A DNA stretch of 64,000 nt from Stegostoma tigrinum. Taxonomy: Eukaryota. The stretch spans positions 20,899,410-20,963,409 of the forward strand of contig NC_081366.1 of the NCBI RefSeq assembly GCF_030684315.1, read 5' to 3'. This document shows, piece by piece, positions 1,280 to 63,225 of this stretch. The notes below the pieces were generated by a model, which had not been told where the DNA came from, searched no databases, and saw only the letters and a list, made by a program, of their open reading frames with translations. A program made the translations under genes and the position numbers. How positions within the stretch are numbered: the first letter of the stretch is position 1; each line of letters opens with the position of its first letter.

Positions 1280-1520
1280 AAAGCAAAGAACTGTAGGTGC
1301 TGGAAATCTGCAACAAAAACAGAAATTACTTAAGAAACTCAGCATCTGTGAAGAGAAAATAAGAGTTAATATTTCTGGTCCACTGACTCATCTTCAGACG
1401 GTATAGTACAGTTGCCTTTTCATCAATAGAGGTGAACAGTTCATTTCTGAGTGGAGATGGCTTCTCTTTCTCAGATTGCTTCCATGAACCATAGCCACAC
1501 AGAGCTTTTCGACTCCTCTG
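1280..1520 (-). mobile_element. Penelope-derived short element, family B (degenerate), with hammerhead core on the - strand at 1368-1397
   Basis: Contains tgctggaaatctgcaacaaaaacagaaatt...gagttaatatttctggtccactgactcatcttcag. The minus strand reads CTGAAGA-T-GAGTC-AGTG-GACCA-GAAA-TA-TT. Confidence 0.6.
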
Positions 1521-2146
1521 CAACTTCTCTGAGTACTCCAACTATATAGAACTCATACGTCAATTGCTACCCCTGCAGTACAGCTAAAAATAAGCGCTGG
1601 GGCCAGCACCTTACTTCTTTGTGACCTTTGATTTCTTTCTGCCTTCTTGGAACTCCATTTCAGTAACCTATTGAAAACAATTCAATAAGCTTTTACCCCT
1701 TGTAAGGCTAAATTGAATATTCCAGCTAATAAATCTATCAACTGAGAGTGCTCTGAATGTTAATTTGTCAAAAAACTATACAGATGTACAGCATGTAAAC
1801 AGAAACTTCAGTCCAACTCATCCATGCCAAACAGATATCATAAGTCATCTGAACAATTGTGGACATTATTAACATATAACTCCAAGATGTGCTTTCTGAA
1901 AGAAGTATCCTGCAGCCAAAAATGATTGCAGTTTTAACTTCAGTCACTGTCCAGTAAAATCCTGTGGGACTCAAGGAATGTTGCACTTATAGATTGTCAG
2001 AGAAACCTCAAACAGAGGGAGTGATACAAACAGCAAGAGAAAAGGAGAAGATGACCATCTCCCCACATTTAGCAAAAAGCTACTTCTTGCAAATTTTTTG
2101 TATTTTGACCTTCCAGAAATACATAAAAACAAGCATAATGAACTGA

Positions 2147-2335
2147 GTCAGAGATAGTAGGAACTGCTAATGCTGGAGAATCTGAGATAACGAGGTGTAG
2201 ACCTATATGAACACAGCAGGCCAAGCAGCATCAGAGTAGCAGGAAAGCTGTCATTTCATCAAAACGTGAGCTTTCCTGCTCCTCTGATGCTGCTTGGCCT
2301 GCTGTGTTGATCCAGCTCTACACCTTATTATCTCA
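2147..2335 (-). mobile_element. Penelope-derived fold-back element, family A
   Basis: Inverted arms span about 2183-2256 and 2261-2335. The flanking direct repeat cataatgaactga (2134-2146) / cataataaactga (2334-2346) has one mismatch. The ribozyme centre is deleted. Confidence 0.85.
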
Positions 2336-2364
2336 TAATAAACTGACAACAACTATAGTGAGTT

Positions 2365-2396
2365 TGTGTGTATGTGTGTGTGTGTGTGTGTGTGTG
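2365..2396 (+). repeat. (TG)n microsatellite
   Basis: About 16 TG units with one interruption. Confidence 0.95.
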
Positions 2397-3978: not shown

Positions 3979-4292
3979 TCAGTGGTTAGCACTGCTGCCT
4001 CATAGTGCCAGGGACCGGGGTTCAATTCCACCCTCAGGCGACTGCCTGTGTGGAGTTTGCACATTCTGCCCGTGTCTGCGTGGGTTTCCTCCGGGTGCTC
4101 CAGGTTCCTCCCACAGTCCAAAGATGTGCAGGCTAGGTGGATTGGCCATGCTAAGTTGCCCAAAGTGTCCCGGGATGTGTAGAATAGTTGGGTTGTAGGG
4201 GGATGGGTCTGGGTGGGATAGTTTAAGGGGAAGTGTGGACTTGTTCGGCCAAAGGGTCTGTTTCCACGCTGTAGTGATTCTATGCTTCTGTG
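3979..4292 (+). mobile_element. HE1/V-SINE-type tRNA-derived SINE (slightly 5'-truncated)
   Basis: A-box/B-box-like head (cagtggttagcact...ggttcaattcc), V-domain (gtgtggagtttgcacattct...gggtttcctccgggtgctcc...cccacagtccaaagatgtgcagg) and a CR1-like tail. Two further copies lie in the window. Confidence 0.9.
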
Positions 4293-4535
4293 AAATTCTG
4301 AGATCAGAACATATTTTGGCTTTCAGCTAAAAGCTTTCAATGATTTCAACAGTTCTATAACACTGTAGGTACTATTAGCACAAACAAATAGATGTCTAGC
4401 AGCATGTGTACTTCTTGAACAGTGTTAGAGTACCTGAGGATGTTGCTCTCAGAGGTCGAAGCATCTTAGTTGTCTCAGTGTTCAACAAATTCAGCCAATA
4501 CAGAACAGCAATCAACAAACCAATATAACATTGAG

Positions 4536-4735
4536 CTAAAAACAGAAAATGCTGAAAACACTCAGCAGGACTGGCAGTATTGGTAAAGAGAGAAACAGAG
4601 TTAATGTTTCAGGTCGATGACCTTTCATCAGCTCTAATGTTGAGAAATGTTGAATCTCTGTTAGTCTCCACAGATGCGGCCTGTCCTGCTGGGCACTTCC
4701 AGCATTTTCTATTTCTATTTCAGATTCTGCCAACC
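4536..4735. mobile_element. Penelope-derived fold-back element, family B, with hammerhead core on the - strand at 4603-4631
   Basis: Imperfect inverted arms. The minus strand reads CTGATGA-A-AGGTC-ATC-GACCT-GAAA-CA-TT, with a perfect 5-bp stem II. Confidence 0.75.
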
Positions 4736-7237: not shown

Positions 7238-8727
7238 CTTAGCCCATTATTAAGAATGAGATCGAAGAGTATGTGGAAGTGCACAATAAATTGGGCTGAG
7301 TCAGCACAGCTCCATCAAATGGGAGTGATGCCTGACAAATTTGTTAGAATTCTTTGAGGAGATAACGAGCATGTTAGACAAAATAGAGATCATTGATGTA
7401 ACAAGGTGTGGAGCTGGATGAACACAGCAGGCCAAGCAGCATCTTAGGAGCAGAACAGCTGATGTTTCGGGCCTAGACCTGAAACGTCAGCTTTTGTGGT
7501 CCTAAGATGCTGCTTGGCCTGTTGTGTTCATCCAGCTCCACACTTTGTTATCTCGGATTCTCCAGCATCTGCAGTTCCCATTATCAGAGATCATTGATGT
7601 GATCTATTTGGATTCTAGAAGGACTTTAACAAGGCACTGCACAGGAGGCTGCCCATAGTGTTCGGGCAAAATACTGGCAGGGACAGACAATTGGTTGCAT
7701 GGCAGAAGGCAGAGAGTAGGAATAAAGGGGTATTTTTCAGGATAGCAGCTGGTGGCTCATGGAGTTCTGCTACTCATATTATGCAATAATGATCTAGATG
7801 AAGGAACTGAGGATATTGTGCCACGTTTGCAAATGACACAGAGCTAGGTCTAGGAACAGGTAATGTTGAGGAGGAGGGTAAGCTACAGAAGGATTTGGAT
7901 AGTTAGGAGAATGGACAAAGAAGAGGCAGATAGAATATAGTGTGGGAAAATGTGAGGTTATACATTTGTTAAAAAGAATGAAAGGCATAGACTATTTGAT
8001 AAATGGGGAAAGGTTTCGGAAATCTGAAGTACAAAAGGACTTGAGAGTTCTGGATCAAGATTTTTTTAAGGCCAACATACAGGTTCAGTTGGCAGTTAGA
8101 AGGGCAAATACAATATTAGCATTCATTTCAAAAGGGCTAGAATACAACAGCAGAGATATGCTGCTGAGGCTGTAAAAGGTTCTAGAAAGACCACAGTTGG
8201 AATATTGTGAATTGTTTTGGGCCCCTATCCAAAAAAGGCATTGGAAGCAGTCCAGAGGAGGTTGACAAGAAAGATTCTGGGGATGAAGGTCTTATCACAT
8301 GAGGAGTGGTTGAGGACTCTGGGTCTGTACTCAATGGAGTTTACAAGGATAAGGACGGGGGAGAGATCTGATTGAAATTTACAGAATACTAAGATGTCAG
8401 GAGTAGAATGCAGAAGTGGAGAAGATGTTTTCACTAGTCGGAGAAACTAAGACCCAAGGGCACAACCTCAGATTGAAGGGATGATACTGTAGAACTAAAA
8501 TGAGGAAAAATTTCTCCAGCCAGAGTGTGGTGAATCTGTGGAGGCTAAGTCATTGAGTTTATTTAAGACAGTGATTGATCATTGATTAGTAAGGGGATCA
8601 AAGGTTACATAGAGAAGGCACATAATGGGTTGAGAAATAGATCAGCCATGATCGAAGGTGGAGCAGACTTGATGGGCTGAATAGCCTAATTCTGTTCCAA
8701 TACGGTGTTATGGTGTTATGGTGTTAG
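7238..8727 (+). mobile_element. 5'-truncated CR1 LINE (RT domain to 3' tail), decayed
   Basis: Fragmentary translations CLTNLLEFFEEITSMLDK, DVIYLD, FANDT, GKCEVIH, KDLRV, ANTILAFISKGLEY and RPQLEYC, with stops and frameshifts. It ends in a tandem (atggtgtt)n tail and is interrupted by a family A element. Confidence 0.9.
7400..7585 (+). mobile_element. Penelope-derived fold-back element, family A, nested in CR1
   Basis: Perfect 15-bp flanking direct repeat agagatcattgatgt (7385-7399 / 7586-7600). The inverted arms meet inside the hammerhead stem II (gtttcgggcctagacctgaaacgtc). Confidence 0.9.
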
Positions 8728-8819
8728 GCTGCATATACTCACATACAGTAACATTTCTGTGGTGCAATAGTTATCATGTTGCTTCACACATGTCTAAAAC
8801 ATAGCAAAAACATTGTGAA

Positions 8820-9465: not shown

Positions 9466-9735
9466 GAGCCAATTTCACACTGACAGAACTGGGAATCTGT
9501 GAGCCCTCCCCTCACCGCAGCACTGCTTATTGTCCAGACATGGGGCTCCTCCATCGTGGATATTCCCTGAGCGACGCTGAATCTGACACAGAAGGTGCCA
9601 TTTCTCCAGAGCATGCTATTAGGTTATGGGGGAGGGGCATCAAATCCAGACGAAGCTCAGGGCTGTCCAGTCGAGAGAATTCAGCCCTCACATTGACTGA
9701 TTCAGACAACGAAAAGGATTCTGATGAGGAAGCAG
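9466..9735 (+). CDS. TENM2: Teneurin-2 internal coding exon (N-terminal intracellular domain; equivalent to human TENM2 coding exon 2)
   Basis: Polypyrimidine tract plus CAG acceptor (tccttcttttctttatgtgcag|GA, AG at 9464-9465) and G|GTATG donor (GT at 9736-9737). The exon is 270 nt, phase 1-1, and translates as (G)[89 protein letters not shown](G). This closely matches the teneurin-2 motif [37 protein letters not shown] as I recall it. The ORF-track entry 9540..9791 is part of this exon plus intron read-through. Confidence 0.95.
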
Positions 9736-11560: not shown

Positions 11561-11758
11561 TTGATCGTCTTCACAATAGAAATTATTTCACTTTATATAT
11601 TTGGGGAAAAGCCCTTTAAATTTGGAGTAACTTAAATATTATTTTATGTAAGTGTATGAAATCAAAAGGGCAAGGAAGAAGCTGGCTGAGGAGATGTGAT
11701 CGCAGCGAACCCATCTTCATGATTCACCTTGTGAACTGCTTTTTCTGTCAAAATGCAT

Positions 11759-12094
11759 GGATTGTCCAGCATCTGCAGTTGCCATTATCACTGATACAAT
11801 TTTAACCTCACTGCGAAGCCTCTTCGAGGGATGCCTAACCTGAAGAAGTTACCCTCCTCCCTCTGGACCAACTTCAGGGAATCTCTCTCCCACTGCAACT
11901 CTCTTGTAATCTCTTCCTCTCCACCTATCTTGTTTTCTCTCCATCTTCGGTCCGCCTCCCCCTCCCTATTTATTCCAGAACCCTCACCCCATTCCCCTCT
12001 CTGATGAAGGGTCTAGGCCCGAAACGTCAGCTTTTGTGCTCCTGAGATGCTGCTTGGCCTGCTGTGTTCATCCAGCCTCACATTTTATTATCTT
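11759..12094 (+). mobile_element. Circularly permuted 336-nt Penelope-derived unit (family A) with intact hammerhead motif
   Basis: Starts with ggattgtccagcatctgcagttgccattatc, the terminal block of other family A copies. It ends at cacattttattatctt, the block that immediately precedes that terminus in other copies. It contains a pyrimidine-rich spacer and the ribozyme core. Confidence 0.8.
12001..12028 (+). ncRNA. Minimal (PLE-type, type I) hammerhead ribozyme motif
   Basis: CTGATGA-A-GGGTC-TA-GGCCC-GAAA-CG-TC: all catalytic-core nucleotides are present, with an extra A after A9 and a palindromic ACGT stem III. Predicted cleavage is after C12028. Stem I in cis is only about 2 bp. Confidence 0.75.
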
Positions 12095-15000: not shown

Positions 15001-15149
15001 ATACCAAGATCTGCCTCTATCAATATGCCCCTTAACCTTGTGTTCATTATTTGCCAATATTTAGTACAGCTTGCAATTCATAACGCTCTCAGTCTCAAAC
15101 TCCATGTTGTAACAAGAAGTGAGAAGACCGCAGCTCAATAATTCATACA

Positions 15150-15355
15150 TTTTTTTGTATTTATACATGGGATATGGGCATCGCTGGCTAGGCCAGCATT
15201 TATTGCCCTTCTGTAGTCGCTGTTGAGAAGGTGGTGGTGAGCTACCTTCTTGACTGCTGCCTTCCAGTTATTGTAGGTAGACCCACAATACTGTTATGGA
15301 GGGAGTTCCAAGATTTTGATTCAGAGACACTGCAGAAGCAGTAATATATTTTTAT
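15150..15355 (-). mobile_element. LINE 3' end fragment (second CR1/L2-clade family)
   Basis: ggcatcgctggctaggccagcatttattgccc...gagaaggtggtggtgagc is the reverse complement of the tail at 33800-33900 and 57940-58000. Confidence 0.7.
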
Positions 15356-15712
15356 GTTGAGTTGCTTCAAAATGAATGTCCTTTGAAGTGCCTTCTGGAT
15401 CTTAAACTGAAAAATTTCTTACAAAAAATAAAAGGAAGCTGCTTTATCGGACTGTTTTAAGAAATTCAGTGGGTGCTGGAGTTAATTTTTGTACTGCGAA
15501 CAATGCTAACTGCAATGGAAGAATGTCACATGACTCAATGCCAAGTGAATGAAACATAATGGAAAGTTGAGATTACCAAAGTTAATTCATGTAAAATCTC
15601 CATTCTGTCATCAATACAAGCACCCATTTTTTAACTAAAGTAAGCCATTTGTCTTTTTTTAAGTTAGTTGAAACATATATCATTACTCTTTGACCTAATA
15701 TTTCAGAAGGAC

Positions 15713-15804
15713 TTTTCTGATGAAGGGTCTAGGCCTGAAACGTCAGCTTTTGTGCTCCTAAAATGCTGCTTGGCCTGCTGTGTTCATCCAGCTCCACACT
15801 TAGT
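15713..15804 (+). mobile_element. Short family A Penelope-derived element
   Basis: 14-bp flanking direct repeat tatttcagaaggac (15699-15712 / 15805-15818). The element begins 4 nt before the ribozyme core. Confidence 0.9.
15717..15744 (+). ncRNA. Minimal hammerhead ribozyme motif
   Basis: CTGATGA-A-GGGTC-TA-GGCCT-GAAA-CG-TC. The core is intact, with a G-U closing pair in stem II. Confidence 0.65.
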
Positions 15805-16503
15805 TATTTCAGAAGGACACTATGTATTACAATTTTCACATAGTATGTATTTGGTTTCGCATGACTGTTAGTCACTAAAGGTTAGATGCCACAATGACAC
15901 AGTGAATTTCTCCTTCTAAGTACATATGAAATGCTGTGTTTATACGGTACGTTCCTCCAGCTCATCACTTTCAGTAAATGTCAAGGTAGCCTAGGAAAGA
16001 AATCAATGCAACCCAATTGATCTGTTGATCCTAAATCATCTGTAATATAAGATGGTAACATAATAGTTTATGTAAAATAAATAGACAAATCTACAGCACT
16101 ATGGTATATCTGCATGCCATCTGTACAATGTAAGATGTCTTTAAAGATGTGTTTCATTCTTGAGACATCTTGCCCTAATATAGTTAGCTTACAGTTGAGT
16201 TTCATGTCCTTAAAAATTGTGGTACCAAATTGATGATGCTTGGTGTAAAGTTCAAGCAATAAGTAAGCAGTTTAATTGGACCCAAGAACCTTGAATACTA
16301 TGTATTAAGAAATTCACTTGAGATTTCAAGCCTGGCTCCAGGGATTTCAGGACAAACCTTACATTGACTGTCCACTGTGATACTGAGAAAGTGCTGCACT
16401 GGTACGGTACAGTTACAAGTCTTTGATTACTGAGAGATCAATGACGACATGATAGATTTTGCACAACGTTTCATCACTTGTCACAAGCAGCTCTGTTTTC
16501 TTG

Positions 16504-16665
16504 GCTAACAAAGTGTAGAGCTGGATGAACGCAGCTTGTTATCTCAGAAGAAGGTCTAGGTCCGAAATATCAGCCTTCCTGCCCTTCTGATGCTGCTTGG
16601 CCAGCTGTGTTCATCCAGCTCTACACCTTGTTATCTCAGATTTTCCAGCATCTGCAGTTCCTACT
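16504..16665 (+). mobile_element. Family A Penelope-derived element with short inverted 5' arm
   Basis: 15-bp flanking direct repeat agctctgttttcttg (16489-16503 / 16666-16680). Degenerate ribozyme cagaagaaggtctaggtccgaaatatc. Confidence 0.85.
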
Positions 16666-17189
16666 AGCTCTGTTTTCTTGTCCTTTCCTTTGTTTTTGTT
16701 TCACAAAAGAGATTTTAATAAGTTTATGTCAAGTCTGTCCTCATGTTTTATGATCCAGGCAGTTTACATGCCATTTGGTAGGCCTATCTGTGTTCTTGGC
16801 CCTGAATCAAAGCAATCACTGTGTGTTTGAAGTACTCGCTAAGTTGCAAAAGAAAGTACCAGGCAGAGAACTGCTAACCCAAGAGTAAAACTTTGTGCAA
16901 AAGCATGCTTGTCAAAAAAAGATCAATTCCAGGGGGAATATAGAAGTTTCTCCATTACAAAGGGGCTGCATAAAATTTTGGAGCTTGGTGCTGTGTTCTA
17001 TGATTCTGACTTGAACAGAGCAGGATTATAAGAGTTACATTCAAACTTTCACAATTTCTAAAAGATCAAAAGACTTCCATTTGTATAACATTGATGTCAA
17101 CAGAACTGCTTTACAATGAAATGCTTTGAAATACCATTGTAAATAAGAATTCTAAAAAGCAAAAATTGTTTCAAAATGTGTTCTACAAT

Positions 17190-17649: not shown

Positions 17650-18905
17650 TTTCAGAATTGGTCAGTTAAGAAAAATCTAAATTGGAACCTATTAATGTAC
17701 TACTGATAGATTTCCAGAAAACATTTGACAAAATGCAGCCCCCACAGGTTACTGTGCAAAATAAGAGCTCATAGTGTAGGGAGAAACACATTAGCATGCA
17801 TTGAGGATTAGTAAGCTAACAAGAAACAGAGCGTGGACAAAAATGTGTAATTTCCTGGTTGATAAGATGCAGTAAGTGGAGTACTCCTGAGATGCTGCTT
17901 GGCCTGCTATGTTCATCCAGCTTCACACTTTGTTATCTTGGAGTACCACAGGGATCAGTGCTGGAGCCTCGACTATTCAAAGCTAAATTAGTAAGTTGGA
18001 AGAAGAAACAAAACGTGTAATTGCTAACTTTGCTGATGACACAAAGATAAATAGGAAACTAAGTTACGAAGAGGACATAAAGCATCATCAAAGATATATA
18101 AAATGGGTGGGTAAATGTTTGGCAGATGGTGTATAATTTAGGAGATTGTGAACTTGTCCACTTTGGCAGAATGAATAGAAAAGTAGGATACTATTTCAGT
18201 CAAAAGGGATAGTAGAACTCTTGAGTAAAACAGGCATCTTGGTATCATGGTACGTGAATCATATAAGTGCAACTAGTGATGAGGTAGGTAAGAAGAATTT
18301 GGTCATTTGTGGAAGGGGAATAAACATGGGAATGTTTTGCTACAGCTGTACATTGTGGGCTAAACTACAATTGGAATATAGTGTACAATTTTGGCCTAAT
18401 ATGTAAGGAAGGCTATTAAGGTGTAGTAACCAGTTCACAGAAGTTTCAATCAACTGATACCTGTGATATCTTACGGAGAAAGGTTGTGCCAGTACCTATT
18501 GCAAACTGGAAAAATAACTAATAATATTTTAAGCACACATAAGATCCTGTAGGGATATGACAGAGTGGATACTAAAAGGATTGTTTCCCATGGGAGAGCA
18601 AATTAGACTGGAGGACACAGTTTAAAAGTAAAGGGTCTCCCATTTATGGTGGAGATGAATCTTCTGAGTCTGTAGAAGTCTTTTTCCACAGTGCAGCGAA
18701 GGTTAGTTCATTGAATTTGTTAAGGTGACGGTAGATAGATTCTTAACTGATAATGAAGTCAAATGTTATCGGGGTAGTTGGGAATGTGGGGGCTGAGTTT
18801 GCGAACAGTTCATCCATGAATTATTCAGTAATGGAGCTCGCTCAAGGGCTTAAAAGACCTACTCCTTTTTGTAATTTGTATGTTTGTAATGTATGTTCCT
18901 ATATG
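17650..18905 (+). mobile_element. Decayed CR1 LINE RT fragment to 3' end
   Basis: Motifs DFQKTFDK, SGVPQGSVLEP (split by an insertion), FADDTK and QLEYSVQFWP. Confidence 0.85.
17885..17938 (+). mobile_element. Tiny family A fragment nested in the CR1 GVPQG motif
   Basis: 8-bp flanking direct repeat tggagtac (17877-17884 / 17939-17946). Confidence 0.85.
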
Positions 18906-40061: not shown

Positions 40062-40376
40062 CATTTTTTTTCATTCAGTAACAGGAAGAGAATGATATTG
40101 CCCATCCCGCATTGCATCCCAGCAGGCAGTTCAGAGTCAATCACATTGCTGTGGTTCTGGTAAGGATTGCTAAAGGGCCTAAAGCATTAGAAACCCATTT
40201 CCTATAGGGAAATTGACAATGGATTCATGCTCATCATTAGGCTCTTAACTCCAGATATTTATTGAATCCAAATTCCACCATCTGCTGTGGCAGGATTCGA
40301 TCCTGGGTCCCCAGAACATTATCTAGGCTTTTGGATTAACTGTCCAGTGACAATACCACTTGGCCATCACCTCCCC
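40062..40376 (-). mobile_element. tRNA-derived SINE (family 2)
   Basis: Reverse complement of 57656-58010. Confidence 0.75.
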
Positions 40377-40879
40377 TATGCAGGAGGGCATGTGCATTAA
40401 GCCAAAAGTGAAGTGATGTCATGCATTCCATTTTTGTTCAACTCTATTTTGTTTTCTATCATTTCAACCTCATGTAACGACTTGAATATTTTCAATCATG
40501 GAACACCTTTCAAAACTCAGGATATTCAAAAGCACTTTAAGGCCAATGATATAAAGTTGCTGTTGTAAATTTGGAAGTGTTGCCGCCAATGCACATGTAA
40601 CAATATTCCACAAACAGTAAATGATGATGACCACTTTTTCTTTTGTTATGCTGGTTGAATAATATTAGAAAAAGTATGGACCAGAATGTATGCAAAATAA
40701 TGCAGCTTAGAGCTGGTGTACCAGGTTTGAAAATCATTCTTTTCAAGTTCAAAGTAACTTCAAAAAGGCAAGCTTATTCCTTTCTGTATGTTGTAAGAAC
40801 TTAATTGCAACATTTTAAACCATCATTCAATGCAGTGAACAGTATTGTACTGTGCAGACAAATCACAGCTTACATAAGT

Positions 40880-41036
40880 GCAAAAGCTGACGTTTCAGGC
40901 CTAGACCATTCATCAGAGAGGTCGAGGCCCGAAACGTCAGCTTTTGTGCTCCTGAGATGCTCCTTGGCCTGCTGTTTTCATCCAACTTCAGACTTTGTTA
41001 TCTTGGATTCTCCAGCATCTGCAGCACCCATTATCT
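40880..41036 (+). mobile_element. Family A element with inverted 5' arm carrying a - strand hammerhead motif (40889-40916)
   Basis: 11-bp flanking direct repeat cttacataagt (40869-40879 / 41037-41047). The minus strand reads CTGATGA-A-TGGTC-TA-GGCCT-GAAA-CG-TC. Confidence 0.88.
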
Positions 41037-42989: not shown

Positions 42990-43595
42990 CTGGATTGAGT
43001 TTTTTGAGGATGTGACCAAAAAGATTAAAGGTAGAGCAGTAGATGTTGTTTACATGGTCTTTCATAAAGCCTTCGGTAAGGTTCCGCATAGTAGACCAAT
43101 TAGTAAATTTAGATCATGGGGATTCAGGGTGAGCTCGCCAATTGGATACAGAATTGGCTATATAGTAGAACCTGGTGGTGGAGGGTTGATTTTCAGACTG
43201 GAGGCCTGTGACCTGCGGTGTTCTACACGGTTCTGTACTGAGTCCACTTTTGTTTGTCATTTATATAAATGATTTGGATGGGAATTTAAGAGGTATGGTC
43301 AGTAAGTTTGTGGTTAATGTCAAAGTTGGTGGTATAGTGGACAGTGAAGAAGGTTATCTAAGATTACAAAGATAGTGGTTTGTGTGTAGCATGAACTGCC
43401 AGAGGAATTGGTGGATGCAGGTACAGCTACAGTGTTTAAAAGACATTTGGATAAGTACATGAATTGGAAACAATTGGAGGGATATGGGGATATGGAACAA
43501 ACACAGGCAGGTGGGACTAATTTAGTTTGCGAACGTAGTTGTCATGATCTAGTTGGACTGAAGAGACTATTTCCATGGTTTATGACTCTATGACG
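42990..43595 (+). mobile_element. Internally deleted CR1 LINE fragment
   Basis: EFFEDVTKKIKGRAVDVVYMVFHKAFGKVPH is joined directly to the 3' end, which has a tatgactctatgac tail. Confidence 0.88.
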
Positions 43596-44239
43596 CCAAC
43601 ATGGTAGGACTGGTTGTCCTGTAAGTGACTGCATAGCAGAGTTGCCAGTTCCAGTTTTGACTTTCTATTAGAACTGAGAGCATCAATGCTTCTACATGAC
43701 TGAACGCCTGAGTAATTTATTGGAACTGTTAATGCTGACTGTGAGGAAAAAGACCAGTTACTACAGTACACATTGGGTAGTAGAAGTGCAAAATAGGCTA
43801 GAGAACGATCACGGTCATCTTGAAAAGTGCACCTGATTTTCCTTTCTATTGGAAAAAAGGGAACTGAAAGACATGCGTTTGTAATATGTTTTTCATGATC
43901 AACGATGTATTTTTGAAGTAGGGGCACTGTTTTAAGTTTGGAAGCACACACACAGACACCCACAAACAACAGTGATAACTACCAGCTACTATGTTTCTGT
44001 TGTCTTGATAAAGCAATAATTATGGGTTAAGACACCGACAATAATTCTCCTGCAGTTCTTCAAAACAGTGTGGTGGGATTGTTTGTACCTGCAGTGGCAG
44101 AAAATTATTTGGGAGTTAAGTCCTTTTTCCAGGAGGTGTTCATCATCTGTACAGCATATGGGTCATTGAAATAGATGCTGGAATTAGGGAGAATATTTGA
44201 CAAATGAAAGCTGATTCTTCCAGCATTAAATAAAGGCTA

Positions 44240-44430
44240 AAGAATCGGGGATACTGGAAATCTGAAACAAAACCAGAAAATAGTGGAGAAACTCTGCAGG
44301 TCTGGCAGGATCTATGGAGATAAAGCAGAGTCAACACTTCAGGTCCAGTGATCCTTCTGAAGTTTGCCTTTTTCTTCACAAATGCTGCCAGACCCTCTGA
44401 GATTCTCCAGCAATTTTGTTTTTTTTTTCA
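44240..44430. mobile_element. Family B fold-back element
   Basis: Inverted arms around a ribozyme remnant cttcaggtccagtgatccttctgaag. Confidence 0.75.
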
Positions 44431-45374
44431 GTATCTATTTTGCTTATTCAACTCAGATCAGTGACTAAAATAAACTTAGCCAGAAATATTAGGGCAGTTA
44501 ACATCGGGAGATGTGCAAGCCACAGAATATCAGATACGTTGAATGTCAGCTTTTATTCAATATGTGCTGTATATGTGTGCACAGAACGTTTAATTTGTCA
44601 CAAATTGCTGGTGGTGTAACTGAAAATATTTTAATAATAATGAATGAACACATGGACCCATCTGTTCATTATAGCTTCTTGACAATCAGCTCTTCACATT
44701 TTTTTATGAAAGTGAAGCTAGTTCTTCTTAATAAAAAAATTCCTTAGAAAAAAAGATTTTCTTCTCCAAAATAATTGCTCCCTCAAGTGTCGACAATCCA
44801 TTCTACAAGAACAATAGTCTTTAGATTGCAGAAACACTCACTGCTATCTTACAGAGTACAATTTACCCTTCAAAAAAAAATTCTCACTTTCCTTCTGAAT
44901 GGAATATGACATTTCAATTCATGCACAGTAATAGTTTAGGTTTCTGTTACGGAAGAAGGAATTTGTATTGTTTCATAAGGCTTTTTTATTCACTGGTGAT
45001 TATACGAAATTGACAGGTAATACTGTATCACGCTGTGAAAGTGAGTATTATGCAGATGGCATGTTTAGTACAATTCAGCTATGTTTGCAACAACAAAGAA
45101 ATGGGAGGAGTGGTTGACATTTTTCTGCAATAAACCAAATCTGAGTGAGAGCAGTGGAGAGTCAGAAGAGTGAATAAATGAATTAATTTTCTGCATATAG
45201 CGTACTCTTCTTATTTCCATCTCTTGACATTAGGATTGAAGTTCTTGTCAAATTTTCTTGGGAGATTTACTGAAAGTTATTGACAAAGAAATTGAGCACA
45301 ATTTGGTAGGTGTAGAGGTATATTGAATCATTAATATTTAAGGTTAATAGAGTTTTAATGGAAACAAGAAAAAT

Positions 45375-45946
45375 AATTACATTTACAGCACCCTTTCATT
45401 ACCTCCAGAATTCTCAGCACCAGTAAAGTACTTTTGAATTATAGTTACAATTGTACTGTAGGAAACAGAGCAGCCAATTTGCACACAGCAAGCCCCCTCC
45501 AAACATAACCTGATCCTCTCTGGTGAAGGGTCTAGGCCCGAAACGTCAGCTTTTGTGCTCCTGAGATGCTGCTTGGCCTGCTGTGTTCATGCAGCCTCAC
45601 ATTTTATTATCTTGGAATTCTCCAGCGTCTGCAGTTCCCATCATCTCTGATCATTTCTTTTATTGTCATGTGGTCAGGGGATATTTATTGACCAGGGTAC
45701 CAGGTAAAGTTTGCTACTTTAACTCTAAAGAGTGCCGTGGAAACTTTCACAACCAGCTGAAATGGTAAATGATGCAGCCTCAGTTTAACAACCTCTACAT
45801 ATGCAACATTTACAGTTTTACAGCATTATAATAGCACTACATTGGAGTGATAGCCTTCCTGCTTGCGCTCAAATCCTGAATTGAGATTTTTGAACCCAGA
45901 ACCTTGTGTCTCAGAGACAAGAATACGAGCAACCAAGCTACAACCA
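45375..45946 (-). mobile_element. Deu-domain-type SINE (SacSINE1/AmnSINE1-like), split by a family A insertion
   Basis: gtaggaaacagagcagccaatttgcacacagcaag...cctcagtttaac...gaacccagaacct...tctcagag matches the Deu-SINE layout as I recall it. Weaker relatives lie at about 40490-40700 and 43880-44150. Confidence 0.6.
45516..45646 (+). mobile_element. Family A element with mutated hammerhead (45520-45547)
   Basis: CTGGTGA-A-GGGTC-TA-GGCCC-GAAA-CG-TC, with an A6->G change in the core. 6-bp flanking repeat ctgatc (45510-45515 / 45647-45652). Confidence 0.88.
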
Positions 45947-47065: not shown

Positions 47066-47443
47066 ATGCACCCAGTAAAGTCCCCTCAGGAGCTTATATT
47101 TTTCAGTTCAGTCACCAGATACAGCCCCAGATTGTCTATCTTTCCATGTATTGAATGCATGAGGGAAAAACACAACCCTGTCTTCCCAAAAATGTCCACG
47201 TTGCAGGGGAGTGAATTCTCTCCATACTTCATAAAGGTTAAGAAAATAAAAAACAGATAGGTAATAAAAATAATTAATATTGATTACCTGCCAATTGCAT
47301 AAACTTGCAGTCTTAATGTCTGAATTCAATTAAACTAAATCTTGTTTGATTGATGTCATTTCTTGATGTTAATGGATTCCTTTTATCTTCAAACAGTCAC
47401 TACAAGAATTAGCTCAGAGCAAAACAGGTTCAGTTATGCCAAT

Positions 47444-47636
47444 ATAATAAAATGTGAGGCTGGATGAACACAGCAGGCCAAGCAGCATCTCAGGAGCACA
47501 AAAGCTGACATTTCGGGCCTGGACCCTTCATCAGAGAGCTCTGATGTGCTCCTGAGATGCTGCTTGGCCTGCTGTGTTCATCCAGCCTCACATTTTATTA
47601 TCTTGGAATTCTCCAGCATCTGCAGTTCCCATTATC
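47444..47636 (+). mobile_element. Young family A fold-back element with perfect 57-bp inverted arms and a - strand hammerhead motif (47507-47534)
   Basis: Arms 47444-47500 and 47545-47601 are exact reverse complements. 14-bp flanking direct repeat tcagttatgccaat (47430-47443 / 47637-47650). The minus strand reads CTGATGA-A-GGGTC-CA-GGCCC-GAAA-TG-TC. Confidence 0.92.
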
Positions 47637-49639
47637 TCAGTTATGCCAATGATCCTTTGTTTTACCCAAGTCTGTTCAGCAAAAGAAAGTTGATAAAAGA
47701 AAAAAAAATCAATGTCCCACATTTTAGGGTTTCCCAATTCAGCCTGTCACACATCCAGGTAAGTACTAAATTAAAGAAACGTAAGAACATTCGTTTCTAA
47801 TGTAAAGCTTCTTTTTTTGCCAGTCTCAAAATTTATTAAAGAGAGTGGATAAGTCTTTGGAAGAAACCATGTTAAGCTAAGTGAAGTGCTACAGTCTGGT
47901 GAAGTGTATTGTTTGCTCTGACTTCTATTTAATATTCTTTTTTTAACAAATATTAACTATTAGTTTTAGTCTGAGCTAAACGACAACAGTGAGGTGTTTT
48001 CTGTCAATCACTAATCAAAAGAAACAGTAATTTACACATATGCTTCAATGATAATATATTTTGTTATTCGCATTCTAGTTGTTTCTCACACAAGTAAAAG
48101 TTTCAGTTCATAAAAACAGAATCTACTGATGGAAGCTGATTTTTGCTCTCATTGAATGTAAAAAGTTTGGAACTGCACATAAATCGTGATATGGCAAATC
48201 TGGTGGGGGTGAAATTATTTTTTGCCATTAGTTCATACTAAATTGGCAGCCAGCGTTTCCCTGCTACACTCCTTCTGTTCAGCTAATTTGGAAAATATTG
48301 TGAAGACTTTTAATTTTAACCAAGTGAAAGGGATGATGACACTAAGGAATAAGTCTCCAAAAGGAGAGGAGCTTGATTCTATACACTATTCTATACACAT
48401 CAGGGGAAAGAATATCAGGCCTAATGAAAAATCAGTTGCCTATTTACAACTAAGACATTTCAGGCAATGAGCAGTGAATAATTAAACTTCCAATGCCTTC
48501 TTTGCTAGTCTTTGAGCAATTGAACAATATTTGCTCATATGATTTACCTGCGTTTGAGAAGAAACAAGCTTTTGGCTTGGTAGTAACATTCCCATCTGTG
48601 ACTCAGAAAATGAAAAATGAGTGGAATCTGAAGTGCTGAATCCAGATTGGTTTCATCCTCATTGTATAGTTAGGGAAAGTATATCATCTGCAATGGAGCA
48701 CTAATTGCCCTGTTGACTGGAAGAAACATTCACATTGCAGTCTGCTAAATTGTTCATCAGGTTACAAATCACTCCACTACTTCCTACTAATTTTGAATTA
48801 TGAAGACACAAAGCAAGATACCTTTTTGAAGTAAAAGGCTTCTTGCTTTCTCTTGAGAATTGAGATCCATAAGAATGCTGTAAACAAGAGGAATCATGGC
48901 TTTCTCTATAGCAATTCGTTTGTGTTATATATCCTCCAGTCTTAGCACGCCATAGTAGTATTTGATTACCATTTTATTTCCATGAGTCTACATTTTTGTC
49001 AAATTGTTCCCTGAATCAGAAGTTGACTTTAATCTCTTACAACTGTTACATTTCCTCATCAAACAACATCTTGTGATCCTCCATTGCAGGAATATTGCTC
49101 TTTGTTACATTGCTTCATCCAGATCTCTTACTTTGCACTCTGTGCTAATTCTATTCATTATGTTTACTGGTAGGTAGGTAGATTACATTATTTGGGACTT
49201 CACTTGTGTTCTTATAAATAGGAACCATATAAACGTTGAGGCTAGTTTAGGAAATGCATATCTGCAATCTGTATCTCAGTAAATAAAAGATAATGGAAGT
49301 GTGTAAAAACTGATACTCATTCTATCCTTCACCACCTGAATTTCTGGAACGGAACACCTTACATTACATTCTCTGCACTAAAAATATCCTTGTGTAATTC
49401 AATAATGGCGTTTAACACCATTTGCTGAGCATTATTTTTTTTTCTTTTGTGCAGTTACATTTTCAGTAAGAATATTGTGTTATGTGGCTGGACTTATCAA
49501 ATTGAAATGGGCCATAACTTTTTCACACTTTATCAAAATTCAACCTTTTCACCATTAAAAAAAAAAGATGGGTCCCTGAGGATAATTTAAAAGGATGCAA
49601 ATCAGACAATTGAACTAAGCTTGTGGAAAAGTGTGGGAT

Positions 49640-51249: not shown

Positions 51250-51860
51250 TGCCCTATTTATACTTGGATTTCCAGAAGGCATTTACAAATATACTACATC
51301 AAAGGTTATTACAGAAGATAAAATCTCATGTTTAGGGGATAACATATCGTCTGGATAGATAATTGGCTGGGTCATGGAAAATAGTGTGTGCATAAATGTC
51401 CCTTTGTCTGATTTGCAGGTTGTGACAAGTGAAGTCCTGCAGGGGTCAGTGCTGAGACCTCAACTTCTATAATTTACATCGTGAGCGGAGTGAAGGCATG
51501 GTAGCTAAATTTGCAGATGGCACGAAGATAGGTAGTAAAATATGTCATGAAGAAGGCATAAGGAGCTTGCAGATGGATATGGATAGGTTGAGTGAGTGGG
51601 CAAAAATCTGACAGATGGAGTATAATTTAGGAAAATATAAAGTTGTTCACTTTGGCAAGAATTTGTTTGAAAAATCAGAGTTTCTAAATGGAGTGCTATT
51701 ATAGATATCTGACGTGCAGAAGGAGTTAGTGTTCTAGTGCATGAGTAGCAAAAAGCTAGGACACAGGTATGCCAAGGAACTAGGAAAGCCAATGAAATGC
51801 TACTCCTGATTTTGAGAAAAATTGGACATAAAAATAAGAGTGTCTTGCTTCATTTTTACA
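51250..51860 (+). mobile_element. Decayed CR1 RT fragment
   Basis: Motifs YLDFQKAF, VTSEVLQGSVLRPQL and VAKFADGTKIG. Confidence 0.85.
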
Positions 51861-52189
51861 TTATTTACATTGAATGTTTATACATTTGCATTTGCTTATA
51901 ATTTTCCTCATCATCTTACAGCATAACTTTTTATGAAGACGTGTAAATCTGATTTATATGATTAAGGTGAAAACCTGTTTTAAAATTTCAGATCGAAAAT
52001 AGTATCAGCGTTCAAATAGTTGAGGATTCCATGATGCATAAGCATTGGAGATAGGGGATCCAACACACAACTTATCCAGAATACTAAACTACCCATGTGT
52101 TTTAAAGCATGTATTTGTACCTTTAATGCCACAAGATCCCTGGAAATTAGATATTCTGTTGGGATAAGACCCTGAAGAAAATCTATGCA

Positions 52190-52401
52190 CAGATAGTAGA
52201 AACTGCAGATGCTGGAGAATCTGAGATAACAAGGTGTAGAGCTGGATGAACACAGCAGGCCAAGCAGCATCAGAGGAGCAGGAAGGCTGACGTTTCAGGC
52301 CTGGACCTCGAGGACCTAGGCCCGAAACGTCAGCCTTCCTGGTCCTCTGATTCTGCTTGACCTGTTGTGTTCATCCAGCTCTACACCTTGTTGTCTCAGA
52401 T
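52190..52401 (-). mobile_element. Family A fold-back element
   Basis: Inverted arms about 52219-52305 and 52314-52401 meet in the ribozyme stem II. Flanking repeat aatctatgca (52180-52189) / aatatatgca (52402-52411). Confidence 0.9.
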
Positions 52402-52520: not shown

Positions 52521-52870
52521 GGGCCAGCCTGGTGGCTCAGCAGCACCAGGGACCGGGTTCAATCCCAGCCTTGGGTGACTGTTTGTGTGGAGTTTGCACA
52601 TTCTCCCAGCCCTTGGATTACCTCAGTTTTCATTCTCACAGTCCAAAGATGTGCAGATTAGGTGGATTGGCCATGCTAAATTGCCTGTCATGCCCAGGAA
52701 TGTGTAAGTTAGGTGGATTAGTCATAGCAAATGCCAGGTTACAGGGATAGGAGAGGGCTGGGAGTTATTCTAGGTGGGATGCTCTTGGGAGAGTCAGTGT
52801 GGACCTATTAAAACAAATGGCCTGTTTCCACATTGTAGGGAATCAATGATTAAGAGATTCATGATTCTCT
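52521..52870 (+). mobile_element. HE1/V-SINE-type SINE
   Basis: ggtggctcag...gggttcaatccc head and V-domain, with a partial internal rearrangement. Confidence 0.88.
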
Positions 52871-57655: not shown

Positions 57656-58010
57656 GGGTGTGGTGGTGATAGGCTAGCGGTATTATCACTGGATTGTTAA
57701 TTCAGGGACCCAGGTAATGTTCCAGAAACTCAGGTTCAAATCCTGCTATGGAAAATGGTCGAATCTGAATTCAGTACAAAACAAATCTGGAATTAAGATT
57801 CTGGTGATGACCATGAACCCATTGTCGATTATCGGGAAAAACCCATCTGGTTCACAAATGCTCTTTCGTAGAGGAAACTGCCATTCTTACCTGCTGTAGC
57901 TCCAGACCCACAGCATATTGGTTGACTTTTAACTGCAATCTGGGCCATTGGGATGGGCAATAAATGCTGGCCCTACCAGCAATGTCCTCATCCAATGAAT
58001 GAAAAAAAAA
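57656..58010 (+). mobile_element. tRNA-derived SINE (family 2) with LINE-derived 3' tail and A-rich end
   Basis: A-box-like ggctagcggta, B-box ggttcaaatcc, a tail ggatgggcaataaatgctggccc shared with the LINE at 15150 and 33430, and an A9 end. Confidence 0.85.
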
Positions 58011-59129: not shown

Positions 59130-60260
59130 GTTGAACTTCGAGTAAAATTATATCTAATGGAAAAAACTTTGAAAGATGGCAATATGCAGTAAATATTGCT
59201 AGAGCTCTTCTCTTGTCAGAAACAATGGTGAGAACAACTGTGTAAAGCACTAATGAAATAAAACGATTTGGAAAACTTACCACTTTGGCTACTGTTGTAG
59301 AAATAATGTAAAAAGTATAAATACTGAGTGCAGCTATAACAAACATGGGAAGACATCTAATGATTTGGATTGAGCAAGAAATTCAATAATGGGTATCTTA
59401 GATTAATGCTTCTTCATAAAATGAAGATTTTTTTATAATTTGTATAATGATCTGGACTGTCTTTTTTCAAATTGGAACACATGACCATTTAATATTTGTG
59501 TAAATGGTTTACAAGGAATAAAACAGGAAGACATTAGTGCTGATAATAAAGCAACTGAATTGTTCATTAAAATATGAAGTGAAAGCACTGAAGAGGGTGC
59601 ATAGACTCTTCAACAGGTGTTAATGTGGATGAGACTGGTTTATCCTGGAAAGGAATGCTTTCCAAGGAACACATTTGAAGAGAAGGAAAGCAGATCCCAC
59701 ATTTTAAAGCAGCAAACAATTGCTTTTGGTAAAGACAGCAGAATGAATTCACTGCCTCGTTACAGTTGTCATACACACAGGGCACTGGAGGTTATTCAAA
59801 GAACAAGCAACGTATTGTGAACAGGTTAATTAAGAAGGCATGGGTGAAGCAAGCAATTTTTAAGGACTGGTGTATATCCTCCTTTGTCTAGCTGTCAAGG
59901 ACAATTGTTCAGCACATAATCTTACAAAAAAACCCATTGCTCATATTGAATAATGATCCTGGCCATCCTTTAGCTCTTGATAGCCTTAGTGACAGTGTTA
60001 AGGTAAGCTTCCTACAATCAGACATCATTTTCATCTAGCCTTTAGGAAACAAAAAATGATGAAAACCTTCAAGGTCTATCACCACAGAAGAACTTGTGGA
60101 CAGGCCACCAGTGAAACTGAGGGTAAACTTGCTCACACTCTCAGTGAATTTTTGAAAAAGAATATCATTGTTAAGGTCATTAACAACAATTCTATGGTAT
60201 GGAATGAGATTCAGTTACCATTAATATGAATGGTGTATGGAGGAAGTTGTAATCAGATTG
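59130..60260 (+). mobile_element. Tigger/pogo (Tc1-mariner superfamily) transposase fossil
   Basis: Ordered motif remnants NMGRHLMIWI, NVDETGLSWKGM (59622), PHFKAA, KKAWVKQAIFKDW, LLILNNDPGHP, KTFKVYH and NMNGVWRKL, with many stops and frameshifts. These correspond to Tigger motifs NVDETGLFWK, KAW and DNAPGHP. Confidence 0.85.
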
Positions 60261-62594
60261 TGTTGGAGCCAAAGGCTGTGTTGACTCTATTGAAAAAAAG
60301 TCATAAAGAACGCCAAAAGTAATGATCCGGGTCATTTTAATAACCAGAAGATAAATACCCACTATAGGCTTACACCCAGTCAGTGTTCCCTTGATGTAAT
60401 GTAGTGTAGGACGGAAGATGGTAGACATCTGTATTGGTTAACTGGAAAAACAGGCAGAAACTATTGAAGTGAAGGAAAATTTACAAAGTGCAAGCTGGGT
60501 GGTCAGTTCGCCATTGTCTATTGCCCAAGAAACCAAGTTGATTTAATGTCCCAAATTATTGTAGATTGGCTTTATTAGTATTATAAATGAAAGTAGAGGT
60601 ACAAATGAAGATAACTCAATTGCTGGGTGCCATTGAATGAGTTGAATTTCTATCAGAGGCGTATGAGAATTTTTCAATGGATTGAGCTTAAATAATTCAA
60701 GCTAAATCCTGACAAATCTGTAATCAGTTAGCCAAAAATTTCTATCCATGGATTAACTTGTTCTTGTCTCAGAATGAAGATTTTTAATAAATTAAAGATA
60801 CATGTAGCCAACTTGCAAATCTCTACATCACAGCCCATTATTCACTCTGTAATTAGATCAAGTTTTGGGATTCTGTGTCTCTAATTAAGATTTCCTGTAG
60901 GTTAATTCTTTCAGTGTTCTGAGTGATGTACATAAATTACTGAGGAAATATTGTGCACCGGAATGAGGAATTTGGTGCAATGGGAGTGAATAAAAAACTG
61001 AACTTGGCTCATGAGAATTTTATACCTCTTTATCTCCATCCTGCAATTTAGACACCTTCTGTTGTCCTTCATCTCCAATGTTCCCAAAACTCTTTTATTA
61101 ATATAGATCACCTCTCGAGATTTTCTCTTAATTTTCCTTTCCTCTTCTTATTCTTCTGCTCTCTAACTAATTAAACTTTGTCCAATGCACAACACCTGTT
61201 TTCTGTCTTCCATTTCATGCTGTCTGTCTATCACCCTTGACCTTACTTGTTCATTAAATTTAACTTACTGTTCCTTATATTTAAATCTCTCCATAGCCAC
61301 ACTCCACCTTCCCTTTGCAACATGCTTCAGCCCTGGAATTCCTCTGATACCCTTCAGACCCGTGATAATCTTTGATTGAATTCTCTTTCTTTGGATACAG
61401 CACTGATTACAGCACTTTCAGTCACTTACCTCCTCATTGTCTCTATAGTTCTCGTTCTGCATTTTTAATGAAGTCATAAAATCAACCTTAATGGCCAAAG
61501 TTTTTGCCATCTCTCCAAACTATTGTACTGTTTTATTCTCCAGACAGCATCTTAGTTTATCTTCAACGAGTCAACCTAGGACATTAACATTACTGGAAAC
61601 ATTTTCATCACAATTGGATAAAAAATTATTTATTTAATTTTAACATTGCAAGGTTTTACTTAGCAACAGTCTAAGCCACTATACAATACTGTCATGAATT
61701 CCCATAATGGGTTGGTACATATAATCACCATTCCTTAATATTATGTAGGATTGTAGATTAAATTTACCCCGCTCTTGATGTCATTGACCAATTCTTGAAG
61801 CCCAGTTGAATACCAGACAAGCCCACCTGGTGTTGCATTGTGCCTAAATAGATCAGACAGGGAGGGAATGGCTGCAGCATGAAGCAGGTTAGACAACAGC
61901 ACATTCTCATTGAAAAATCTAAATATCAATTTGGTTTAAATGGAAGTGACACTAAACTGTTGTCAATTGCAGCAAGGAATGGATGCACAAACTGGCAAAT
62001 AGTTAGCATGTCAACTCTCATTCTGATGAGACTACACTCAGCATCATAGAGTGATGAGAGAAAAAATAGGGAAAGCTGTATGCCATCTCTAGGGAGTTGA
62101 GAATCATACTACAATTTCCCATTGACTGCAGGATGATAAAAAAAACAATATCAAGGTTTGGAGTCCGTTGAAGCACGTAAGGAAACAGAGGGCCTAGATT
62201 TGAGGATGAGGACAAAACCTTAACAAAAGCCAGGAATATTTTATAAAATATTCTGAAATTAATCTGCACTTATTTGGGTGTATCTCTGTTAGGATCATCT
62301 GCACCATTTCTGAACAGAATGAATAAATATTTGAGATTTTATCAAGGAAACAATTATAGCTTTTAAATAAAAAGAAATTAAGTGATGAAATTGGTGAGGC
62401 AAATTTTCTAATCTATGATTTACAGATGAAAACAGAGACATAACTGAAAAAGAGCTTACAAAGAACTTTTTAAAAAATTGGGTTATTTTATTGTTTTGCA
62501 CTCATTATTTGTGCAATGGCCCGGATTATTAGATTGCACTCACAACTTACACCATTTCCAGATCAATGTTTCGGCCAAACACCCAGTTCTCACA

Positions 62595-62785
62595 TAGTAG
62601 AAGCAGAAAGTGCTGCTAAAACTCAGCAGATCTGGCAACATTGTGGAGGGAGAAGTAAAGAAACTCTTATGGCACTTGAAACATTAACTATTTCTCTGTT
62701 CACAGATGCTGCCAGTTGTACTGAATTTCTCCAGCACTTTCTGTTTTCATTTCAGATTTCCAGCATCCACATTATTTGCTTTCAT
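62595..62785 (+). mobile_element. Family B fold-back element (degenerate)
   Basis: Inverted arms cagaaagtgctg / cagcactttctg, a ribozyme remnant gaaacattaact and a terminal tccagcatc. Confidence 0.7.
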
Positions 62786-63009
62786 TAACGTACTCTAGGT
62801 GCTGTTAATGTGGAGAAATTCATTCAACAAACCAGAAAATTTGCTGTATGAGAAAGGATCCTCTGCATTGAAGGACGTACTGGTGCTGTAGGCTGTAAGA
62901 GTATATTTTGCCTTTGGCTTGTAGGTGCCGTCTATGATTACGCCTTAGGCACAATCTTTAGGCACTGAATAGCAAAAGAACTGCACGTTCTATTTCATAA
63001 TAGCAAAAC

Positions 63010-63225
63010 AATGTGAACTGGAAACTAAATGTGCTGAATGTATTTCAGTGGTTCACTCAGAATCTGTGGAGTGATCACATGAGTTGATACTTCAGATATG
63101 GCGTCTTTGTCAGAACTGAAGTTCATCCATTTCTAATGAAGGACGAATACCCAACACATTAACTTATCTACTTTTTTCACTTTGGTCACTGACCCACAAT
63201 GTGTTTCTGGTATTTCATATTTTTT
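63010..63225. mobile_element. Very old family B-like fold-back element
   Basis: Decayed ribozyme-like ctaatgaagg...cccaacacattaact and an inverted partner ending tttgtcagaact. Confidence 0.4.

Follow-up and report, generated by a model that had tools for sequence, protein, structure and literature searches.

The short, hammerhead-bearing repeats dispersed through a 64,000-nucleotide stretch of the Stegostoma tigrinum genome (contig NC_081366.1, positions 20,899,410 to 20,963,409, forward strand; the whole stretch is hereafter the window) are almost certainly insertions derived from the pseudo-long terminal repeats (pLTRs) of three protein-coding families of Penelope-like elements (PLEs). Most are probably dead-end, run-off products that arise when the PLE's own enzyme copies no more than the first 100-135 nucleotides (nt) of an uncut RNA. 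Family A is a young Neptune element with intact copies, family B an older Neptune, and family C a truncated Poseidon element with an endonuclease remnant. Rather than parasites in their own right, the short copies are probably dead stumps, whose very regular ends probably preserve a trace of the PLE copying mechanism. The kind of element is already known, as minimal hammerheads in PLEs and vertebrate retrozymes have been published. With an estimated 800,000 insertions, together with intact, near-identical Neptune copies, this genome lets the question of how PLEs form their tail and their inverted repeat be put as countable rules: a 5' boundary at the start of the hammerhead, a long and a short arm, one template, and microhomology at both ends.

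An initial annotation of the window had placed seven hammerhead cores, and all seven were verified: 12001-12028, 15717-15744 and the copy at 45520 (with an A6G change) on the plus strand, and 1368-1397, 4603-4631, 40889-40916 and 47507-47534 on the minus strand, where the quoted starts are the low ends, at the cut site. A core-pattern search of the window gave six matches against 0.08 expected, a number reached in none of 100 shuffles; the seventh core is the A6G copy. By self-BLAST, 20 intervals fall into one group. A search with profiles built from natural copies found 30 arms in 18 clusters, which amount to 19 insertions because the Poseidon copy and an adjoining stump merge in one cluster. 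This is one insertion per ~3.5-3.6 kb, where the annotation had put roughly one copy per 4 kb. Seventeen of the 19 are stumps of 60-220 nt, made of single or opposite-strand arms of 60-135 nt each, several with target-site duplications; unit-length tandem hammerhead repeats are absent among them. Ten are head-to-head palindromes, a feature missing from the annotation. The repeats that it described, about 17 related short elements in three families, are real, but the GUCACC/GGGGAC copy at 38242 is no mini-element: its core is decayed, and it forms the end of a 786-nt remnant of a protein-coding PLE.

The features of the window are given below. Positions within insertions are relative to the predicted cut site, +1 being the first base after the cut, so that the first C of the core lies at -27 in family A and -29 in family B.

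1267-1398, minus strand: single stump of family B (older Neptune pLTR) spanning -30 to +93, with a decayed hammerhead at 1368-1397
2146-2339, unstranded: family A (older subfamily) head-to-head palindrome; long arm -7 to +104 (minus), short arm -8 to +71 (plus); centre in stem III, core lost
4526-4726, unstranded: family B head-to-head palindrome whose minus arm carries the hammerhead at 4603-4631
7396-7591, unstranded: family A palindrome; short arm -18 to +65 (minus), long arm -19 to +103 (plus); centre in stem II; 15-bp target-site duplication
9466-9735, plus strand: host teneurin coding exon, 270 nt, flanked by AG/GT; insertions in the introns on either side
11758-12094, plus strand: family A retrozyme-like non-autonomous unit; parent +66 to +224, holding the tail and ~29 initial codons of the Neptune ORF (open reading frame), joined to -116 to +66; intact core 12001-12028, predicted cut after 12028
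15712-15814, plus strand: family A single stump, -32 to +70; core 15717-15744; 14-bp target-site duplication
16499-16672, unstranded: family A (older subfamily) asymmetric palindrome; short arm +32 to +69 (minus), long arm -30 to +101 (plus); 15-bp target-site duplication
17882-17945, plus strand: family A stump, +9 to +72, without hammerhead; 8-bp target-site duplication
25802-25932, minus strand: family B single stump, -32 to +98, decayed core
26707-26764, plus strand: family B fragment, +29 to +85
37562-38347, plus strand: Poseidon-type PLE (786 nt), 5'-truncated and decayed, with reverse transcriptase (RT) thumb, GIY-YIG with stops and frameshifts, and pLTR hammerhead GUCACC/GGGGAC at 38242
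38361-38472, plus strand: older Neptune-type stump, -9 to +101, separate, abutting the Poseidon copy
38744-38938, unstranded: family B head-to-head palindrome
40872-41045, unstranded: family A palindrome; clipped minus arm -32 to +17 (core 40889-40916), long plus arm -23 to +107; 11-bp target-site duplication
44229-44431, unstranded: family B head-to-head palindrome
45515-45653, plus strand: family A single stump, -32 to +105, core with A6G; 6-bp duplication
47436-47643, unstranded: family A palindrome; short arm -31 to +71 (minus, core 47507-47534), long arm +6 to +104 (plus); 14-bp target-site duplication
52184-52401, unstranded: family A (older subfamily) palindrome; long arm -18 to +105 (minus), short arm -20 to +70 (plus); centre in stem II
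62596-62786, unstranded: family B head-to-head palindrome, decayed
63046-63225, unstranded: very old B-like remnant, outside the 19, of which the minus arm 63046-63120 alone scores (E=0.002 on 500 nt)

Each hammerhead type sits in the pLTR of a protein-coding PLE, and therefore none of the three is confined to a mini-element. A genome search with the GIY-YIG endonuclease returned 10 loci: the A hammerhead follows the endonuclease in eight and the B hammerhead in one, and one locus ends before it. When the DNA downstream of the A hammerhead was traced, full-length copies emerged, with two cores ~3.4-3.7 kb apart in nine of ten fetched stretches; at loci L213-L221, cores ~3.6 kb apart flank the open reading frame (ORF), which places the hammerheads in the pLTRs. 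Three copies (L213, L215 and L217; 94-99% alike) have an uninterrupted ORF of 1,073-1,084 amino acids with RT and GIY-YIG. In L217 the cut site is followed by an ATG at +139 and a stop at +3360, with a period of 3,612; the layout of the A parent is 3' untranslated region, hammerhead, cut site, tail sites (~+63 and ~+99), ATG (+139) and ORF, repeating every 3.6 kb. Domain scores in the A parent (RVT_1, E~1e-4 to 2e-5; GIY-YIG, E=0.0025) are both under the curated cut-off, and its protein homologues carry RT families, the best named match being from Chiloscyllium punctatum (76% identity), in keeping with a shark host. The intact ORF (L154, L159, L213-L222) also carries, between its N-terminal domain and the RT, a Pro/Thr-rich insert built from variable tandem repeats, and a repetitive C-terminal extension beyond GIY-YIG. 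We considered whether L214 is a full element with an extra mini-unit and rejected this, as the extra 345 nt resemble an older copy that L214 entered.

Family B copies are ~88% alike and broken; B loci run on into the Neptune ORF, with RT and GIY-YIG seen as broken copies only. Relatives of family C extend into a Poseidon RT (RVT_1, E=4e-8 in L134). A CX4CxxC linker between RT and endonuclease is present in L217 and in B copies, and no CX2-5CxxC ahead of GIY-YIG was found in translated family C copies. Under published clade definitions (PMC8557442), RT together with GIY-YIG at the C terminus are common to Neptune and Penelope/Poseidon. The linker motif, which also occurs in Nematis, marks A and B as putative Neptune-type PLEs, and its absence alongside RT and GIY-YIG suggests a Penelope/Poseidon type for C, both being motif-based rather than tree-based clade assignments. 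The short copies hold nothing that is absent from the parent pLTR and have lost its upstream TATA-like box, which is not the make-up of short interspersed elements (SINEs), and the centres of the palindromes vary between copies. The proposal that the whole set forms SINE-like or retrozyme-like parasite families is true of one of the 19 insertions (11758-12094); the stumps are parent pLTR sequence only.

The density in the window is average. In a genome sample of 95 stretches of 10 kb (950 kb), placed by hand on large contigs only, we counted 243 insertions (A 166, B 55, C 22), or one per 3.9 kb, with none in a reversed control, so the abundance is not peculiar to the teneurin gene. Extrapolation gives ~820,000 insertions in the genome (bootstrap 700,000-930,000) and ~225,000 palindromes. 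The exact 28-nt A core has 92,176 genomic matches and one B core pattern 1,550; profiles of the pLTR ends account for 6% of the sampled DNA and the full A element for 7.9%.

Both ends of the insertions are regular. The 3' ends of family A are bimodal, at about +55 to +69 and about +94 to +105, two sites ~35 nt apart that correspond to the PLE tail. The 5' ends were tallied in the same sample for arms scoring at least 20 bits, dropping arms at stretch edges. Among 214 A arms, 49 begin beyond -290, 29 at -289 to -41, 60 at -40 to -26, 42 at -25 to -3, 11 at -2 to +3 and 23 later; among 77 B arms, 39 begin at -40 to -26 and 2 at the cut site. A hand calculation on these counts puts the stop rate at ~2.9% per nt at -40 to -26 versus 0.15% per nt further upstream. 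At the cut site it is ~1% per nt, equal to the remaining hammerhead, and hence shows no excess there. The 5' peak recurs in single stumps (A 19/99, B 20/35) and in young copies, and the junctions retain ~2-6 templated bases ahead of the core. An alignment artefact as the source of the -30 peak was checked and rejected, and the DNA upstream of the junction is not pLTR.

Among the best matches, 19 of 26 B copies have TATAWA 33 nt before the core and 20 of 26 have TCAGTT directly before it; in family A, 54 of 61 copies have TATWWA at a distance of 34-35 nt. By comparison with consensus motifs, we read these as a putative TATA-like promoter box and initiator. A splice acceptor was set aside as the 5' boundary: an AG does stand two nt ahead of the core in family B, but none does in family A, and target duplications directly abut the 5' ends. 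In Drosophila virilis an intron ends at helix I (PMC4209133) and the promoter is described as TATA-less (PMC2377424), and a rotifer pLTR has been reported with TATA box and initiator (PMC3846280).

The insertions show the known PLE signature, namely a tail of 30-40 nt at one end, an inverted 5' copy and a target-site duplication. Duplications of at least 7 bp flank 51 of 131 short insertions in the sample, where 6 would be expected, and those of stumps generally measure 8-18 bp. In the window, the palindromes at 7396, 16499, 40872 and 47436 are flanked by duplications of 15, 15, 11 and 14 bp. Since the duplications enclose whole palindromes, each palindrome arose in one event. One arm is long and the other short in 45 of 50 A palindromes (p=4e-9, against 50%), and A singles end at either site (43 short, 58 long). 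Microhomology with the target was scored in 46 A palindromes, taken from the window and all fetched loci, whose duplications reach 8 bp or more; 36 long and 37 short arms were left after poorly aligned ends were dropped. Microhomology is present at both outer ends, with 1.69 nt for long arms (0.54 when swapped) and 1.46 nt for short arms (0.39 when swapped). Finally, among loci with ORF-less deletion units (see below), 18 have the deletion junction in both orientations, with equal unit length in 17 and a 1-nt difference in the 18th. Given that 27 unit lengths occur among 60 such loci, the same rare junction in both arms means that the arms came from one template.

Predicted hairpins for the palindromes at 2146-2339, 7396-7591, 47436-47643 and 52188-52401 have 71-93 pairs (-115 to -164 kcal/mol), and an annotation might mistake them for microRNA precursors or miniature inverted-repeat transposable elements. 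An Rfam scan of the window gave no match to the hammerhead family at E<=10; its microRNA-like matches are the palindromes, and every score is below the gathering threshold.

In LINE-1 twin priming, two target ends prime on one RNA and give an inversion, and retroviral strong-stop DNA is a short run-off cDNA that must jump. A scheme akin to both, differing from them in that the two cDNAs overlap the same stretch of RNA and in that priming is internal and near the 5' end, could account for the rules above. The TATA-like box and initiator in the pLTR would start the transcript 2-6 nt before the core. GIY-YIG would nick both target strands, and the RT would prime inside the RNA at a tail site, aided by 1-5 nt of microhomology, and run off the RNA 5' end to leave a single stump. 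Alternatively, the second target strand would prime at the other tail site of the same RNA, and the two cDNA ends would be linked by way of stem II or another short palindrome, so that a head-to-head palindrome of a long and a short arm results. Longer and full copies would require a jump to the RNA 3' end, and occasional mis-jumps between pyrimidine-rich stretches would produce ORF-less units of 250-640 nt such as 11758-12094; these would keep promoter, hammerhead and tail and be copied in trans, every lineage staying small. Twin priming on one RNA fits the duplications, the long/short rule, the microhomology and the shared template. Taken as a whole, we put run-off with twin priming at an even chance or a little less. 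A more specific form, in which the Neptune pLTR is a TATA/initiator promoter with the hammerhead at the RNA 5' end, a PLE protein dimer primes twice on a single RNA, with a subunit for each tail site and target strand, and unjumped strong-stop cDNAs are the main product, we hold more tentatively, at somewhat below even. If true, it would explain in a single model the tail, the inverted pLTR, the ~225,000 hairpins and why mis-jumps keep giving rise to retrozymes.

Several observations weigh against this scheme. The transcription start 2-6 nt before the core is itself something we infer from motifs and end positions. Because the TATA and initiator motifs are inherited within each family, they represent two observations rather than 80, and only one of five unselected, diverged B copies keeps TATWWA. 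Poseidon copies have an AT-rich box ~47 nt before the core, yet none of 22 shows the 5' pile-up; for the same reason, we dropped Poseidon as a control lacking a TATA box. A consistent extra G, the signature of a cap, was not seen at the 5' junctions of 25 singles with duplications. The long/short rule is less strict in B palindromes (9/15, with cruder end calls) and holds in one of two in C, and rare variants common to both arms exceed those of the nearest non-partners only about twofold (8 in 34 pairs; 0.24 versus 0.11). The stretches behind these counts were no random draw, and for the anole Poseidon PAc, target and priming site are reported to share no homology (PMC11167929).

Snap-back self-priming, proposed from palindromic junctions in rotifer PLEs (PMC3846280), shares much of this explanatory reach. 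The cDNA from the long site would fold on stem II or a short palindrome, be copied back to the short site and be resolved by a nuclease, again yielding one template, centres in stem II (as at 7396 and 52184) and one long and one short arm, so that most of the observations fit. However, short ends are also primed ends in singles, where 43 A copies are short-ended and 58 long-ended, and the target microhomology of the short arm equals that of the long arm, as priming there predicts, although end-joining could mimic this signal. We therefore consider snap-back unlikely, if a serious contender. Somewhat less likely again is that the 5' boundary marks an RT stop, or an exonuclease-protected edge, at a folded or protein-bound hammerhead rather than the start of transcription. 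The missing cap-like G and the Poseidon copies that lack a peak despite their AT-rich box speak for it, as does a truncation rate raised across the whole hammerhead (-25 to +3, ~1% per nt). The peak, though, lies beyond the fold, after the RT would have passed it, and not at its entry, and the canonical spacing from TATAAA to TCAGTT in family B predicts the observed position.

The deletion units bear on two further alternatives. The window unit at 11758-12094 is ~340 nt, exactly one unit length and 94% identical to L217, and encodes the first ~29-30 residues of the Neptune ORF. Such units make up 1 of 19 insertions in the window and 2 of 166 sampled A insertions. In the genome, 60 loci carry ORF-less units of 250-640 nt in 27 different lengths; these loci were picked by targeted searches, and their junction frequencies are not a fair sample. 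Related units occur as one to three tandem copies, often with an inverted arm, and no longer arrays were seen; the window unit is a monomer whose junction recurs in tandems at L003 and L017. The junction is identical within the locus in 23 of 25 multi-junction loci and differs between loci, so the deletion was already in the template, and a template without the ORF must be copied in trans. Exact genomic matches number 20 for the window junction and 7 for that of L223. At L223 (4976-6183), three near-identical tandem 301-nt units and an inverted copy share a private change at +1 throughout, with one short duplication around all of them, which makes this array the best candidate for copying from a circular template. 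On these properties the units are best called non-LTR retrozymes, apparently born often and amplifying little.

That all copies arose by rolling reverse transcription of circular RNAs formed through self-cleavage and re-ligation, the model of PMC4209133, appears improbable. Multi-unit tandems with identical junctions would suit a circular template, as would a window unit exactly one unit long, but a circle gives no cause for stops at -30, and cleaved linear RNA predicts ends at +1, where there is no excess (11/214); moreover, stem I of family A has 2 pairs, its monomer does not fold as a hammerhead, and published activity is low (PMC4209133). Least probable of all, and largely refuted for the stumps, are independent non-autonomous families moved by PLE proteins from short masters of their own: fairly fixed stump lengths favour them and the 60 loci with their frequent same-junction tandems of two or three, including the L223 repeats, bear them out for the deletion units, but those units are rare and of many lengths, the 20 exact junction matches stand against 92,176 exact cores, the stumps have neither a TATA-like box nor non-pLTR sequence, the palindrome centres differ from copy to copy, and no amplified lineage of short copies was found in the sampled insertions and junction counts.

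The motifs themselves are, as annotated, minimal type I hammerheads of PLEs, homologous to pLTRs: the CUGANGA/GAAA/UH core is present with stem II and a palindromic stem III. Among window cores, only that at 12001 keeps all core positions. The core at 15717 has a G10.1-U11.1 pair, the first stem II pair is broken at 40889, the ACGU palindrome is broken at 4603 and 47507, and stem II is disturbed at 1368; in the sample, 43 of 122 A arms that span the core are fully intact. When Neptune hammerheads are set against Poseidon ones, pairs 2-4 of stem II and pair 1 of stem I are altered on both sides, which supports the fold. The suggested covariation of stem II between families is thus genuine for this comparison. 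AGGUC/GACCU, however, is an uncommon form within family B (4 of 30 B cores have A-U at that pair), and a CpG change makes up half of it; variation within families is mostly decay. Stem I of family A is only 2 bp, and in single-strand folding the monomers do not adopt the hammerhead fold (four of five stretches gave z 0.3-0.95). Minimal motifs are expected to behave in this way, and the result was not used as evidence. Stumps have no same-strand hammerhead partner nearby; the exception is the pair 12001 and 15717, which lie on the sense strand of the teneurin gene with 3.7 kb between them. Cleavage of the host pre-mRNA seems unlikely.

Minimal PLE hammerheads described by Cervera and de la Pena in 2014 (PMC4209133) share the type I core, an extra nucleotide before stem II and an ACGU palindrome that stands in for stem III; they too lie in Neptune and Poseidon pLTRs of fish, and most are scattered motifs, single or on opposite strands, left by truncated PLEs. 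The available parts of that report name no shark, and its ~4,000 copies in coelacanth and ~9,000 in Xenopus are far below the number here; stem I of family A, at 2 bp, also differs. Partial tandems, an inverted 5'-truncated copy, a tail of 30-40 nt and target-site duplications are known from PLEs (PMC3846280); here, in contrast, most products are ORF-less stumps of pLTR only, their 5' boundary is sharp, and the long/short rule is followed almost strictly. In vitro, anole PAc (Frangieh 2024, PMC11167929) initiates internally, at two tail-defining sites downstream of the hammerhead, cuts and extends both target strands, uses uncut RNA as template and is predicted to be a dimer. PAc is a Poseidon rather than a Neptune, however, and in our families the tail sites precede the ATG and junctions show microhomology; the main text of that study offers a model neither for inverted arms nor for a 5' boundary. 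Non-LTR retrozymes, which form circles (PMC7229834), are also ORF-less, pLTR-derived tandem units with a type I hammerhead. A survey of vertebrate retrozymes derived from pLTRs included one chondrichthyan (mean 363 bp) and saw cleavage in one of nine dimers (bioRxiv 10.64898/2026.07.22.740005). The units here differ in making up ~1-2% of A insertions, in a minimal rather than canonical hammerhead, in at most three tandem units and in a visible parent and junctions, so that retrozymes can be seen arising repeatedly from an identified parent. A literature search, with subscription journals, Repbase and Dfam outside its scope, found nothing on this shark family, a hammerhead 5' boundary or PLE twin priming. 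As to the host, PLE-derived sequence makes up 6-8% of the sampled DNA, and roughly one in four insertions is a hairpin of 70-100 bp, which would be predicted to form double-stranded RNA in introns in either orientation.

The coding exon at 9466-9735 lies between insertion-bearing introns, with AG/GT splice sites and a Ten_N match (E=3e-40); we presume the paralog to be TENM2, as the homology names the teneurin family only. PLE copies often lie inside or beside other PLEs, with microhomology at the junction (window 38341-38472; L051; L097; L214; L135), including Neptune into Poseidon and Neptune into older Neptune ends. A short inverted repeat (37543-37571) marks the 5' truncation point of the Poseidon copy, and a 28-nt scrap of family A tail lies at 39536-39563. 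Another repeat of ~200 nt with a tRNA-like head has three copies (3979-4194, 34950-35169 and 52546-52733) and presumably resembles shark HE1/V-SINEs. Translations revealed LINE-like RT fragments at 7903-8175, 18023-18172, 42964-43272 and 51504-51849, which we take to be of CR1/L2 type. Four small repeat groups are unrelated to the hammerhead families: 15143-15258, 34789-34902 and 57952-58010; 31422-31533, 40211-40374 and 57662-57830; 759-902 with 31980-32132; and 33444-33578 with 35455-35585.

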